The notes below the pieces were generated by a model. The model did no database searches, was not told the origin of the DNA, and saw nothing but the letters and a program-made list of their open reading frames with translations. Shown here piece by piece: positions 58,861-61,962 of a stretch of 64,000 nucleotides of DNA. Numbering within the stretch: the stretch's first letter is position 1; each line of letters opens with the position of its first letter. The stretch comes from Patescibacteria group bacterium (GTDB lineage Bacteria > Patescibacteriota > Patescibacteriia > Patescibacteriales > GWC2-42-12), in the NCBI GenBank assembly GCA_028707005.1, contig JAQTVB010000002.1, positions 121-64,120 of the forward strand. Reading direction: 5' to 3'. Both the position numbers and the translations under genes were made by a program.

Positions 58861-58960
58861 GCAGAACGTATCGCTATATCCGAAGTTCTGCGGAGCGAAG
58901 CGGAGCAGAATTTCAGCGTAGGCTTCCGTGAAGCCGCGGCCGGATATAGCGTGTTATATG
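58861..58960. repeat. attC-like site 4
   Basis: gcagAACgtatCGCTATATCCG...CGGATATAGCGtGTTATATg. The inner boxes are perfect 11-bp complements. Two internal hairpins (TTCTGC/GCAGAA, GGCTTC/GAAGCC). Confidence 0.6.
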
Positions 58961-59085
58961 ATGTACATGTTTTACTTTGGCTCGCCAGCGGTGAGCCACT
59001 CTTAAAAAAGGAATTTAATTTTTGTTTTTTCGTTTTGGGCTTCGGGAAGAGGGTTAAGGGGTGAATTCCCGAAGCCCAAAACTCC

Positions 59086-60186
59086 TTATTTATTCAATAA
59101 TTTAATTAGTTCAGTAAAAGCATAAACTTTATTGCGTTTTTTTTCAGGATTGATCTCTTTCAGAATTCCAGCAACCACAAATTTGGCCACTAAACTAAAA
59201 AACGTTTGTGTGTTTTTTATTTTAAGATACGGCCGCAAGCTAGCGGTGGTGAAAATAGGCCTAATAAAAATCGCATCCAGTAGATTATTAGAATAAATAG
59301 AGCCGATGTCCATAATTTTTTCTTTGTAGGAACTGTGAAGTTTAAGAATTTCTTTTCCGGTTTCCTCGGCTTTTTGTGCTTGAGCGGTTATAGCATTTAA
59401 GAAAAATTTTATCCAACTTTCCCAATCCCGTTTTTCACTGACGCCGCGCAATAGTTCATAATAATCTTGCCGGTGTTCCTCGAAAAATTCGCTTAAATAC
59501 AAAAACGGATGAGAAAGTAATTTTTTCTCATATAAAAATAATGAAATAATTAATCGTCCGACTCGGCCGTTGCCGTCCAAAAAAGGATGAATAGCTTCAA
59601 ACTGGTAATGGGCTACCGCGATTTGCACTAGTTTGTCTTTTTCTCCGTCGGCGTTTAGATATTTTTCCAAATTGCTGAATAGGGGAATAATGTTATTGGC
59701 CGATGGTGGAATATATGACGCTTCTGCCATACTGGCTCCGGGTTTGCCGATGTATACCTGTATTTTTCTAAATTCTCCGGGCGCTTTATTATAGCCTCGG
59801 CCGGATCTAAGTAAAGTGGCATGCAATTTTTTTATCAGATTTTCAGACAAGGGCAGTGTTTTTAAGCTCTTTACTCCTAAATCTAAAGCCTGACGGTAAT
59901 TTATTACTTCGTTTATATCTTGTTTTTTCTTGGCGTCTTCCTTTTTACCAGGTTCGGCTTCATAAGCTAAAACTTCATTGATAGTGGCTTGCGTGCCCTC
60001 TATTTTTGAACTTTCAACAGCTTCTTTTGTTTGCATGGTTCGGCCTAAAAGGTTTGGGTTGGGCAAAGCGCTTAATAGGGAATCAAGCCCGGCGATGGCG
60101 CGGTGAGCCTTGATAATATGGTTAATCAGCGGTTCATAGTTGATTTTTGGTGGCAATTCAGGCGGATTAAATGGTTTTTTGGTCAT
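59086..60186 (-). CDS. Fic/DOC-family protein (second copy, divergent)
   Basis: 366 aa. Fic motif HPFLDGNGRVGRL and inhibitory-type SSKIEGT. Confidence 0.88.
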   Translation of the reverse strand: MTKKPFNPPELPPKINYEPLINHIIKAHRAIAGLDSLLSALPNPNLLGRTMQTKEAVESSKIEGTQATINEVLAYEAEPGKKEDAKKKQDINEVINYRQALDLGVKSLKTLPLSENLIKKLHATLLRSGRGYNKAPGEFRKIQVYIGKPGASMAEASYIPPSANNIIPLFSNLEKYLNADGEKDKLVQIAVAHYQFEAIHPFLDGNGRVGRLIISLFLYEKKLLSHPFLYLSEFFEEHRQDYYELLRGVSEKRDWESWIKFFLNAITAQAQKAEETGKEILKLHSSYKEKIMDIGSIYSNNLLDAIFIRPIFTTASLRPYLKIKNTQTFFSLVAKFVVAGILKEINPEKKRNKVYAFTELIKLLNK

Positions 60187-60365
60187 ATTTAGCGGTTAGA
60201 ATAAGGAACTTCGTTATTCTAATGGTTATAATAAGGAATTGTCTTATTCCAATATTATCATATATATTAGAATAAGGCAAGAGGGATGTATACAAACCAT
60301 TATGTTTTTAGATATTTCGACTATATCCAATTATGTCTAATTAAAATGTTTGGCTTATTTTATCA

Positions 60366-61730
60366 TTAATGCTCTTTTTTTATTTTTGCAAATAAATCCT
60401 TTATTTTTTTACTAATAATAACCGGATATTTTTGCTTATTTTCAATATCTAATAATTTTTTCGGTAAGCTTTCAAACTGTTTATCAAAAAATTTATGTAT
60501 TGAGTCAAGATTCGGAAGTTTTTGTGTCAGAAAACCTTTACTTATAATTTTTTTCAGCAATGGGGTTTCGTAACTCTCATTTACCAGCCCAACAACATCG
60601 CGTAACATTAGCCCGTTTTTAAATTCACGAAAAACTTGCTTTCTCCCCGGGCAACTGGTTTTTCCTTCTGATAATTTTGCCGTATAATGAATTGCTCTGC
60701 CGTCTCGCAACTCCGATATTTTATATACCACTTCAAGACTTGGCGCGTCAGAAACAGTTACATATTCCGTAGCTAGAATAAAAAAATCAATTGGCGCACC
60801 GTCATCAAAGAGTTTTTTGATTTTGTTTTCATTCATGTTCGTCGCGGCTAAAATTTTTACTTCCTTTAAGTTATTTTCATCCAATTTACTTCTTACTTTT
60901 TTTGAAAGTGCTGCCAAATCACCCGAGTCAATAGTAACTAGTCGCAAACCATTGCCTTTTCTTTTTAATTCATTCGCGATAACGATTGTATTAGATAAGC
61001 CTTGGTCGATATCATATGTGTCTATCATAAAACCAGCATTATTAGGAAAATATTCCGCTAACTTTCTAAAGGCTTCAATTTCATTTTGAAATGACTTAAT
61101 AAAAAAATGTTGTCCGTTTATTAAGTACTCTCTTTTTTGCGGTAAATTATATTTTTGAATAAAATTTGGCCAGCCCGTGGTTAGAAGGCCGCAAATATAA
61201 CCGCTCCGCAACCCCTTCATGCCTGATTCAAATGAATGTCCTCTCTGCATCCCAAGAATTATCCCTTTTCCCTGACTAACGCTGCGAATTCTGGCGGCTT
61301 TGGAGAGAAATAAAACGTTAGAAACGGTGATATTAAATAAGGCAATTTCAATTAATGAGGCCTCGATTAGCGGAGCGGTAACGCGGACAATCGGCTCTCC
61401 TGGAAAAAAAATTGTGCCTTCCGGCATAGCGTAGATATCGCCGGAAAAGCGAAAATTTTCTAAATATTTCGCAAATTTTTTTGTAATTATCTTGCCATTT
61501 AGAAGTAATTCAATCTGTTTTTTGGAATATTTTAAGTTTTGAATATAATTTACCAGCTCTTCAAGTCCGCAGTAAACCAAATAATTTCTTTTATCCGACA
61601 TTTCTCTAACCACTAAATCAAAGGTGGCGATTTGGTTTTCCATCCCTTCTCCCAGCCAAACAGCGCCTTGCGCGAAACTCGTGGCAAACTGTGTTAATGA
61701 TAAATCAGATAATTCAAAAAGATTATTCAT
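60366..61730 (-). CDS. pncB: nicotinate phosphoribosyltransferase family protein
   Basis: 454 aa. FSGDIYAMPEGTIFFPGEPIVRVTAPLIEASLIEIALFNI closely follows the conserved NAPRTase N-terminal/barrel junction pattern. Confidence 0.75.
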   Translation of the reverse strand: MNNLFELSDLSLTQFATSFAQGAVWLGEGMENQIATFDLVVREMSDKRNYLVYCGLEELVNYIQNLKYSKKQIELLLNGKIITKKFAKYLENFRFSGDIYAMPEGTIFFPGEPIVRVTAPLIEASLIEIALFNITVSNVLFLSKAARIRSVSQGKGIILGMQRGHSFESGMKGLRSGYICGLLTTGWPNFIQKYNLPQKREYLINGQHFFIKSFQNEIEAFRKLAEYFPNNAGFMIDTYDIDQGLSNTIVIANELKRKGNGLRLVTIDSGDLAALSKKVRSKLDENNLKEVKILAATNMNENKIKKLFDDGAPIDFFILATEYVTVSDAPSLEVVYKISELRDGRAIHYTAKLSEGKTSCPGRKQVFREFKNGLMLRDVVGLVNESYETPLLKKIISKGFLTQKLPNLDSIHKFFDKQFESLPKKLLDIENKQKYPVIISKKIKDLFAKIKKEH

Positions 61731-61832
61731 ATTTTTTGGATTTTGAATTTGTATTACCCCTCTTTAATTAAAAAACAAAAATTAAATTCATTTTTAAGAG
61801 CTGGGCGAAGTCCAAAAGGAAAACATGTATTT

Positions 61833-61962
61833 CATATAACGTATCCGAATATACGGAGTTTTCCGAGCTGAAAGCGATGAAAATTCGGGCGGAGATAAAA
61901 TTCAATTCCTTAGTGTAATGTTATTTGGAATTTTATCGGAGCCGTATATTCGGTGTTAGCTG
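61833..61962. repeat. attC-like site 5
   Basis: CATATAACgtatCCGAATATACGG...CCGTATATTCGGtGTTAGCTG. The inner boxes are perfect 12-bp complements. Confidence 0.6.

Follow-up and report, generated by a model that had tools for sequence, protein, structure and literature searches.

A probable integron-like cassette array with long, partner-specific R stems in a Patescibacteria genome

The window studied here is a stretch of 64,000 nucleotides (contig JAQTVB010000002.1, assembly GCA_028707005.1) from the genome of a member of Patescibacteria, or the Candidate Phyla Radiation (CPR). Seven left and seven right half-sites of a palindromic element were found at 54.9–63.5 kb, and we regard this region as probably the cassette array of a sedentary integron-like element. 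All open reading frames (ORFs) at 53.9–63.3 kb, including the cassette genes, lie on the minus strand, and nearly all ORFs in the first 54 kb of the window lie on the plus strand. The genes between the sites encode a CsaA-like tRNA-binding protein, a nitroreductase, two Fic proteins, a NUDIX protein, NAPRTase and several small proteins without an assigned family, which is a typical accessory gene mix. The array region is AT-rich, with a GC content of 34–41%. Coordinates of the features are listed in Table 1.

On the plus strand a site consists of ATTTC-N4-AAC, the spacer GTAT or GTTT, a box of 11–12 nt, a branched variable region, the complementary box, a single T and GTT-N4-GATGT. The cores include a perfect RYYYAAC/GTTRRRY pair, GCCTAAC/GTTAGGC. 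This design is the R''-L''...L'-R' architecture of integron attC sites, and the corresponding notation is used below. The longest inverted repeats that a repeat finder detected in the region include the arm pairs considered below, as well as a 40-nt pair around the NUDIX gene. A known RNA family was dismissed as an explanation of the sites, given that Rfam yielded no match in the window at the gathering threshold and only one tRNA-Sec-like match at the E-value threshold.

The initial annotation of this DNA had described a split pairing at two adjacent sites, numbered 4 and 5, and the pattern was reproduced when recomputed. The inner boxes pair within each site, at 11 of 11 positions in site 4 and 12 of 12 in site 5, while the outer cores and flanks pair across the cassette. 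Segment 58953–58973 on the right side of site 4 is complementary to segment 61820–61840 at the opposite end of the Fic+NAPRTase cassette in 19 of 21 positions, and to the left flank of its own site in just 10 of 21. The same type of pairing had been reported for three other cassettes. It holds for the CsaA-like cassette (54948–54969 with 55328–55349, 17 of 22 nt) and for the nitroreductase cassette (55748–55762 with 56298–56312, 15 of 15 nt). In the third case, segment 62761–62783 indeed pairs at 22 of 23 positions, its partner being 63383–63405; the partner coordinates originally given were shifted by one base and as written produce only 8 matches of 23. The matching tract far exceeds the canonical 6–7 nt, as had also been remarked. 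The long imperfect extension suggested for the Fic+NAPRTase cassette is present as well: the local alignment of 58960–59030 with 61770–61833, where the 7-nt core is left out, has the score of 57, and none of 1000 shuffles reaches this value.

Following the proposal of the initial annotation, every GTT-side flank was then compared by local alignment with all reverse-complemented AAC-side flanks; the 7-nt core was left out. The cognate partner, i.e. the flank at the other end of the same cassette, ranked first for 58953/61838, 62761/63403 and 54948/55347. The score equals 47 for 62761/63403 (0 of 1000 shuffles) and 26 for 54948/55347 (3 of 1000 shuffles), and non-cognate pairs score 12–26. There are exceptions: the partner of the nitroreductase cassette is a decayed site at about 56321, with AAT for AAC, rather than an intact one, and the half-sites at 55736 and 57834 stand alone. 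The cores, the R''-L''...L'-R' sites and the split pairing agree with the integron-type cassette array that had been suggested, and the split pairing reads as the footprint of a site-specific crossover within the conserved triplet.

The pairing between cassette ends was studied in 60 distinct cassettes from all fetched loci, each retained if the four variable core positions matched (an earlier set contained 29 cassettes). Across the cassette, the cores are 4/4 complementary in the window and in these 60 related cassettes, the latter having been chosen for matching cores. The ungapped stem has the median length of 26.5 nt (quartiles 18–30, maximum 57) and is at least 15 nt long in 56 of the 60 cassettes. 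Positions 8–12 are conserved, with the pairs C.G, T.A, T.T, T.G and A.T on the plus strand, and the clamp ATTTC-N4-AAC / GTT-N4-GATGT is retained throughout the cassette family. A T.T mismatch occupies position 10 in nearly every cassette. At position 11 all 60 cassettes have a plus-strand G.T wobble; the minus strand would have A.C there. Positions 13–22 form Watson–Crick pairs in 72–98% of cassettes, compared to 27–47% with shuffled partners, and all four pair types occur. Positions 1–3, 8, 9 and 12 pair in 79–100% of cases even with non-cognate partners, and hence the hybrid sites that exist in the array would still be foldable.

Outside position 11, G.T wobbles are found 39 times on the plus strand and 16 times on the minus strand (binomial p = 0.0027). 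This excess fits selection on a plus-strand DNA hairpin and speaks against an mRNA structure. Base pairing between the flanks of a cassette transcript, as is known for the flanks of 16S rRNA, could provide for RNase III processing or mRNA protection. Indeed, the arms occupy almost all non-coding space from the site core to the ORF ends, and they would be co-transcribed in read-through transcripts. We consider such an RNA-level role very unlikely, since the wobble at position 11 and most of the others are G.T on the plus strand, antisense to the genes, and would be A.C mismatches in the mRNA. Moreover, the stem begins exactly at the recombination triplet, and arms are retained in cassettes without ORFs. 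Such arms-only cassettes, with bodies shorter than 150 nt, constitute 16 of the 60 (e.g. L004 2454–2499 and L026 3083–3120). The arms were also scanned for promoters and terminators. No consistent ones were found, and the small hairpins in long arms lack T runs on both strands; these two functions of the arms were ruled out by the scan.

The arms of the Fic+NAPRTase cassette represent an elaborate subtype, in which a 26-bp stem, a small hairpin in each arm and a second stem of about 31 bp follow one another; cassettes in the related loci L004, L008, L031, L034, L036 and L038 share it. With DNA parameters, the joined ends of the Fic+NAPRTase cassette fold at −71.2 kcal/mol on the plus strand and −65.1 kcal/mol on the minus strand, and site 4 in its array context, taken at equal length, at −40.6 kcal/mol.

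To describe the inner part of the sites, 71 sites whose inner stem is perfect over 10 bp or more were selected, so that the numbers characterize typical anatomy and are not an unbiased rate. In this set, selected for a perfect stem, the L stems of all 71 sites are perfect, unbulged duplexes of 10–12 bp. In canonical sites (class 1 aadA, Vibrio cholerae repeats, VCR), two or three bases of the L-box arm are extrahelical, and an internal loop separates the boxes. Extrahelical L-box bases are absent from the 71 selected sites, and the spacer, or bulge, is present: the 5' spacer is longer than the 3' one by exactly 3 nt in 61 of 71 sites, typically GTAT versus T.

Twelve of the 71 sites are 250–750 nt long, with genes placed within the second hairpin of the variable region, which is closed by stems of 24–31 bp. 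In L004, L018 and L024 a giant site is followed by an arms-only cassette body of 45 nt, and therefore the cargo there is found past the L box and not past the R box. In a single strand closed into a circle, both cargo positions are the two end loops of one long rod. Sites with internal genes include L004 1984–2456, L039 7915–8479 and L078 172–918.

A motif screen of related loci revealed a gene for a tyrosine recombinase of about 270 aa that adjoins the array and is divergent from the cassettes in L004, L018 and L027. Its start is located about 100–130 nt from the junction ATTTC-N4-AAC↓TNNTTTATATRCGAAGTG (here the arrow marks the junction and, below, the exchange point). The junction consensus is ATTTC-N4-AAC↓TCGTTT(C/T)TAT(A/G)CGAA, with the short form ATTTC-N4-AAC↓TNNTTTATATRCGAAGTGTTTTCGTATA. 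In six of six further loci fetched via the protein, the attC array ends at the attI-like junction about 100 nt upstream of the gene; in total, the recombinase and the junction occur together in nine related loci. The attI-like motif was found in 83 metagenome loci, 68 of which have room to the right, and in 40 of these 68 tblastn placed the recombinase gene 76–146 nt from the motif. Two elements were noted in the attI-like region: a dif-like inverted repeat of 9 bp around a spacer of 5 nt (ATACGAA-GTGTT-TTCGTAT), and a box CG(T/G)ATATA resembling the attC L box. The recombinase has more than 6000 homologues at E <= 1e-30, and its identity across CPR lineages is 70–79%. Its best relative with a solved structure is VchIntIA (PDB 2A3V, E = 2e-43, two-block alignment).

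The interpretation in the initial annotation did not stand as to the triplet and strand of the crossover. It had been placed at plus-strand G↓TT (58953, 61955), which means that the inner part of a site is owned by the left cassette, with genes inverted and lying upstream of their own site. The flank pairing fits this placement just as well; it cannot by itself tell the strand, because both flanks sit in one cassette either way. Besides, the plus-strand 5' arm has extra spacer bases and at first sight resembles the canonical top-strand R''-L'' arm. The placement is contradicted by homology breakpoints. Locus L034 matches positions 58865–60363 of the window at 88.9%, a span that takes in the inner site, the flank and Fic (the Fic proteins share 94.5% amino acid identity), and L008 matches 58865–59089 at 95%, followed by another gene. 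In both loci the homology starts exactly at AAC 58865 and runs rightwards through the inner site and the flank, into Fic in L034; everything further left is different. Among 13 sites that have the left box of site 4, the sequence to the left of AAC differs in all 13, and the inner part and the sequence to the right of GTT are conserved in most. Further, L044 contains a perfectly duplicated cassette of 963 nt: 7972–8937 coincides with 8935–9900 in 966 of 966 positions, and the copies overlap by AAC. Copy 1, the nearest to the recombinase gene, abuts the conserved attI-like sequence. Hence the cassettes are discrete AAC-bounded units that can be duplicated into the first position by the attI-like site, and, given the breakpoints in L034 and L008 and the duplicate in L044, the inner part belongs to the right-hand cassette in plus-strand coordinates.

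The strand follows from the agreement of the homology breakpoints, the ORF orientation and the position of the recombinase gene and attI: the minus strand is the top one. With this assignment each ORF precedes its own site, as in canonical cassettes, and the attI-like junction AAC↓T... lies beside the divergent recombinase gene. The spacer asymmetry was likewise counted for the minus strand as top. An argument for plus as the top strand, drawn from the longer arm, was dropped, as all three lines of evidence favor minus. We therefore consider a plus-strand G↓TT crossover highly improbable. The crossover would instead be G↓TT on the minus (top) strand, i.e. AA↓C at 58865–58867 and 61838–61840; which bond inside the triplet is cut is ambiguous because AAC is invariant. 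Since the exchange point lies in AAC, the Fic+NAPRTase cassette comprises positions 58867–61839.

The same data bear on whether these units are cassettes at all. Units that start with GTT..., end with ...AAC and carry inverted repeats of 15–75 nt might be transposon-like, or similar to miniature inverted-repeat transposable elements; or the sites might be repetitive extragenic palindromes or bacterial interspersed mosaic elements, with flanks matching through AT-rich composition (34–41% GC). Against both, the pairing is partner-specific, far above shuffled and non-cognate controls, and the sites are built as R''-L''...L'-R' with RYYYAAC/GTTRRRY-like cores. No transposase is encoded among the cassette ORFs, no target-site duplication was seen at the L044 duplicate, where the two copies share AAC, and insertion occurs at one fixed site beside a tyrosine recombinase gene. 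We find such explanations extremely improbable.

Comparison of window positions 60363–61752 with L034 4698–4938 also shows that NAPRTase is an addition within a cassette that in L034 holds Fic alone. The homology to L034 ends 3 nt before the NAPRTase stop codon and picks up again in the 5' arm. Therefore the content of a cassette varies within a conserved frame of arms and site. The site-plus-arm module is 82–95% identical beside Fic genes that are merely 27% identical or beside unrelated genes. These facts, together with the ORF-less two-arm cassettes (16 of 60) and the genes inside long-hairpin loops within sites (S1, S6 and the sites longer than 250 nt), could mean that the arms are a functionless relic of cassette making, left when a gene was captured in the loop of an "empty" hairpin-only cassette or when one arm was copied from the other. 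We consider this unlikely. Most cassettes have near-perfect pairing with all four pair types, and their mismatches are biased to plus-strand G.T, which points to a maintained structure and not to neutral decay; besides, we know of no capture mechanism of this kind. Such an origin is compatible with a present function, and both could hold.

Several observations weigh against the integron-like reading or parts of it. For IntegronFinder, an integron is defined by intI, attI and cassettes bounded by attC. The recombinase gene and attI are both absent from the window, where a motif screen found no tyrosine recombinase genes; the array heads toward the window end. An exact search with 40 nt from that end matched none of the metagenome contigs, and no record of the NAPRTase protein was found. 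The array includes several decayed or orphaned sites. In the 75-aa cassette (61955/62250) the cores are non-complementary, and the sole match of its flanks is the low-complexity sequence AAAAATTTTTAA. In 28 of the 68 attI-motif loci there is a cassette junction with no adjoining recombinase gene; the integrase is often lost, with the array and attI remaining. VchIntIA residues 179–240 face just 19 residues of the CPR recombinase, so that the stretch which we take to be the IntI-specific insertion (I2 helix) contacting extrahelical bases is missing, and we know of no enzyme without the IntI-specific domain that acts on folded single strands. The NCBIfam integron integrase profile TIGR02249 gives 203–220 bits in two stretches at the cut-off of 265, and NF011946 gives 123–138 bits at the cut-off of 435. 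The archaeal XerA/integron integrase profile scores 216–230 bits (cut-off 220), about level with the integron-integrase score. Strand-biased C-to-T mutation could partly yield the plus-strand G.T excess. A role of the long arms in excision is not obvious, because in the array they compete with the folding of hybrid sites. Finally, recombination at these sites is a prediction from sequence.

The following model would account for the data. On the plus, or "bottom", strand the mobile unit would consist of C, a spacer of 3–4 nt, L'', the variable region, L', T, GTT-N4-GATGT with the 3' arm, the minus-strand cargo and the 5' arm ending with ATTTC-N4-AA. A tyrosine recombinase encoded outside the window would bind the folded plus strand, with strand exchange within AAC. 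Because the crossover would separate the R-box triplet from the remainder of the site, a cassette would carry one half of its own R stem at each end in the array; therefore pairing is within the site for the inner boxes and across the cassette for the cores and flanks. The R stem may have two layers. The conserved 12-bp part is probably the outer recombinase-binding arm and a strand-selection mark; the T.T/G.T pair and the 3-nt bulge would mark the strand and polarity, the task of extrahelical bases in canonical sites. The second layer, an extension particular to each cassette, brings the stem to a median total of 26 bp; for Fic+NAPRTase it amounts to about 75 nt and includes an internal junction. 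It would zip in two situations only: in the excised circle, where the cassette ends are joined, and in single-stranded DNA from which the cassette is looped out. In the circle, the zipped extension would give a far more stable hairpin substrate for re-insertion at attI; in single-stranded array DNA, arm pairing might loop out the cassette and bring both exchange points together.

The element shares many features with canonical integrons (class 1, Vibrio VCR). In both, co-oriented and mostly single-gene units are each followed by an R''-L''...L'-R' palindrome with AAC/GTT cores; the first bases of a cassette complement its own R'' box, in line with a crossover within the triplet. ORF-less cassettes, toxin-like cargo (Fic), a divergent integrase gene beside attI (in the relatives) and a recent first-position duplication (L044) belong to the same list. 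The recombinase resembles IntI1 and VchIntIA in its catalytic motifs, the C-terminal ...SPL tail and the gene position and orientation relative to the array. Unlike VchIntIA with its 320 aa, it contains 270 aa and lacks the IntI-specific domain. Unlike canonical attC sites with the R stem of 7 bp, the CPR sites have the R stem of 15–57 bp (median 26), the ATTTC-N4-AAC / GTT-N4-GATGT extension with the fixed T.T mismatch and G.T wobble, a perfect L-box duplex of 10–12 bp with no extrahelical bases, and a constant 3-nt bulge between R and L; some are 250–750 nt long and have genes in the variable region. Thus the element is integron-like in its working and layout and departs from integrons in the IntI-specific domain, the L-box extrahelical bases and the 7-bp R box.

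Arrays in uncultivated small-genome lineages known via metagenome-assembled genomes have a precedent in archaeal integrons (Ghaly et al. 2022, PMC9668308). IntI is described as a tyrosine recombinase with an additional domain around patch III (Messier & Roy 2001, as cited in PMC9668308). Archaeal IntIs keep this IntI-specific additional domain, and archaeal attCs fold like bacterial ones (PMC9668308); in contrast, the CPR recombinase has not kept the domain. In this respect it is similar to the Xer recombinases of the Xer/dif systems (XerC/D, XerA, XerH, XerS), being Xer-sized and free of the IntI insertion. As with xerS and xerH, its gene adjoins its site, and the attI-like region has a dif-like inverted repeat. 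A Xer/dif system for resolving chromosome dimers has a single double-stranded dif site in each replicon, with two inverted arms of 11 bp, and a housekeeping recombinase. Unlike dif, the partner sites of the CPR recombinase are long palindromes able to form hairpins, arranged in tandem among accessory genes, and the exchange would occur at the edge of a folded R stem and not in a symmetric double-stranded core. A housekeeping role of the recombinase seems less likely given the absence of its gene beside 28 of the 68 attI motifs.

Relatives of the sites were sought by an exact-pattern scan with one genome per species. The left half-site occurs in 38 loci, nearly all from Patescibacteria, and the lineages include Uhr-, Buchanan-, Magasanik-, Andersen-, Moran-, Portnoy- and Saccharibacteria. 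Individual site types are shared among genomes: the type of site 4 (88 nt, inner boxes CGCTATATCCG/CGGATATAGCG) was found in eight other loci. In L008 and L030, this site type is flanked by a conserved counterpart of the first 90 nt to the right of S7 (GTTAAACGACCCGACGACCGAAGGGAGG...), S7 being of that type. Locus L012 (JAZDLF010000019.1), from a bin assigned to a Woesearchaeota archaeon, has the same site family and a cognate arm pair of 30 nt, which is either cross-domain cassette sharing or a binning error. The attI motif without the gene was seen in L049, L064, L065, L066, L070, L075, L077 and 21 more loci; L077 has a shortened gene remnant.

Table 1. Features of the array region in window coordinates (aa, amino acids)
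Feature	Position	Strand	Description
attC-like site S0	54903..54954	+	distal array end; AAC 54903, GTT 54948; inner boxes imperfect
CsaA-like cassette body	54948..55349	-	tRNA_bind ORF 54972-55310; arms 54948-54976 / 55321-55349, 29 nt, 83%
Giant attC S1	55347..55695	+	AAC 55347, L'' CGGGATATCCG, L' CGGATATCCCG, GTT 55689
S1 second hairpin	55405-55428 / 55644-55667		perfect 24-bp stem; holds 73-aa ORF 55421-55642 on minus strand
Orphan right half-site	55697..55742	+	L' CGGATATGCCG, T, GTTAGGC 55736; fused to S1 R'' end
Nitroreductase cassette	55736..56365	-	ORF 55762-56277; arm 55748-55762 pairs with 56298-56312
Decayed attC after nitroreductase cassette	~56321-56365		AAC changed to AAT; L' degenerate
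Fic cassette (no NAPRTase)	56369..57836	-	Fic 352 aa, 56369-57427; 102-aa ORF 57500-57808; 5' arm ends ATTTTGCCTAAC at 57836
Incomplete giant site	57834..58422	+	left half 57834 AAC GTTT CGGTATAAGCG; R''-like GTTATAT 58416; no L' box found in 57834-58422
Contents of incomplete giant site			consensus promoter 57902-57929 (+), small RNA, 139-aa ORF 57994-58413 (-)
NUDIX cassette	58416..58866	-	ORF 58443-58835; arms 58421-58460 / 58827-58866, 40 nt, 80% complementary
attC site 4	58865..58959	+	AAC 58865, spacer GTAT, L'' 58872-58882, two-hairpin variable region, L' 58941-58951, T, GTTATAT 58953
Fic+NAPRTase mobile unit (predicted)	58867..61839	-	site-4 inner part, 3' arm, Fic 59086-60186, NAPRTase 60366-61730, 5' arm
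Fic+NAPRTase 3' arm (R'' side)	58953..59030	+	stem 1 GTTATATGATGTACATGTTTTACTTT, small hairpin 58979-58997, stem 2 58999-59030
Fic+NAPRTase 5' arm (R' side)	61770..61840	+	complementary to 58953-59030; ends ATTTCATATAAC
attC site 5	61838..61961	+	L'' 61845-61856, L' 61942-61953, GTTAGCT 61955; part of 75-aa cassette to the right
75-aa cassette	61955..62252	-	ORF 61979-62206; cores GTTAGCT vs CCACAAC non-complementary
Giant attC S6	62250..62767	+	L'' ACGAGTATCCG, L' CGGATACTCGT, GTT 62761
S6 27-bp stem	62330-62356 / 62717-62743		encloses promoter 62409-62436, small RNA with terminator 62482-62517, tRNA-Sec-like gene 62556-62641
143-aa-ORF cassette	62761..63405	-	ORF 62812-63243; arms 62761-62813 / 63346-63405, 22/23 by core, ~50 nt gapped
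attC S7	63403..63497	+	L'' CCGAATATACG, GTTAAAC 63491

Signs of decay or rearrangement in the window are the change of AAC to AAT in the site at 56321–56365, the half-site 55697–55742 fused to S1 and the mismatched cores 61955/62250. Two of the sites carry promoters. The one in S6 is near-consensus, TTGACA-16-TATATT with TG, and drives a small RNA ending at the strong terminator. The tRNA-like gene that follows matches Rfam tRNA-Sec with 44.1 bits (gathering score 47, E = 2e-6), and ARAGORN reports it as tRNA-Ile(gat) of 87 nt. Positions 62441–62465 of the small RNA are 84% complementary to positions 62575–62599 of this gene, and the segment 62409–62660 has the RNA folding z-score of −4.3. The promoter at 57902–57929 is a perfect consensus, TTGACA-16-TATAAT with TG, and precedes a short structured transcript beside the minus-strand 139-aa ORF, which has no assigned family. 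The unit 57834–58422 is conserved in L025 (70% over 614 nt; 69.6% identity of the 139-aa proteins) and may be a toxin–antitoxin-like module.

Past the last recognizable site, between it and a bidirectional terminator at about 53810–53840, lie two minus-strand genes that encode a second tRNA_bind protein (53877–54200) and a protein of 194 aa (54222–54806). The latter has no Pfam match and looks like a membrane protein by eye. The genes at 53877–54806 may be old cassettes stripped of their sites. At the other end, segment 63491–64000 is GC-richer by eye, and a plus-strand ORF with no assigned family starts at 63695 and leaves the window; the array past S7 probably continues toward attI and intI beyond the window. 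Over the block of plus-strand genes (1–54000) the cumulative GC skew climbs steadily, and it flattens in the array (54000–64000). Should plus be the leading strand, the plus strand on which the sites fold would serve as the lagging-strand template, and cassette transcription would run head-on to replication.

The literature searched contained no relevant description of integrons in Patescibacteria/CPR or of extended R boxes, and the IntegronFinder 2.0 survey does not mention Patescibacteria/CPR phyla. Integrons are the textbook system of gene capture and reshuffling, and their origin, attC recognition and the birth of cassettes are still open questions. The present family supplies a large natural set of sites, with more than 6000 recombinase homologues and the site in dozens of CPR genomes. 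An R stem three to ten times longer than usual, an Xer-sized recombinase and the lack of L-box extrahelical bases make new questions testable: whether single-strand recombination needs the IntI-specific domain, how a long R arm affects folding and insertion, and whether "empty" hairpin-only cassettes and genes in hairpin loops are intermediates of cassette formation.

We tentatively suggest, as a plausible possibility that we would not yet call probable, that Patescibacteria possess a widespread and still active lineage of integrons that lacks both features held to define single-strand attC recombination, the I2 domain and the L-box extrahelical bases, and relies instead on the long R arm, the T.T/G.T pair and the 3-nt bulge for recognition of the folded bottom strand and strand choice, with dumbbell-like circles holding cargo in either loop, past the R box or within the variable region. 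If true, this lineage could stand near the transition from Xer to IntI and be invisible to current integron finders. Standard tools demand an integrase that carries the IntI domain and accept attC sites up to about 200 nt, and so they probably miss CPR integrons, and with them the mobile accessory gene pools across a large part of the bacterial tree.

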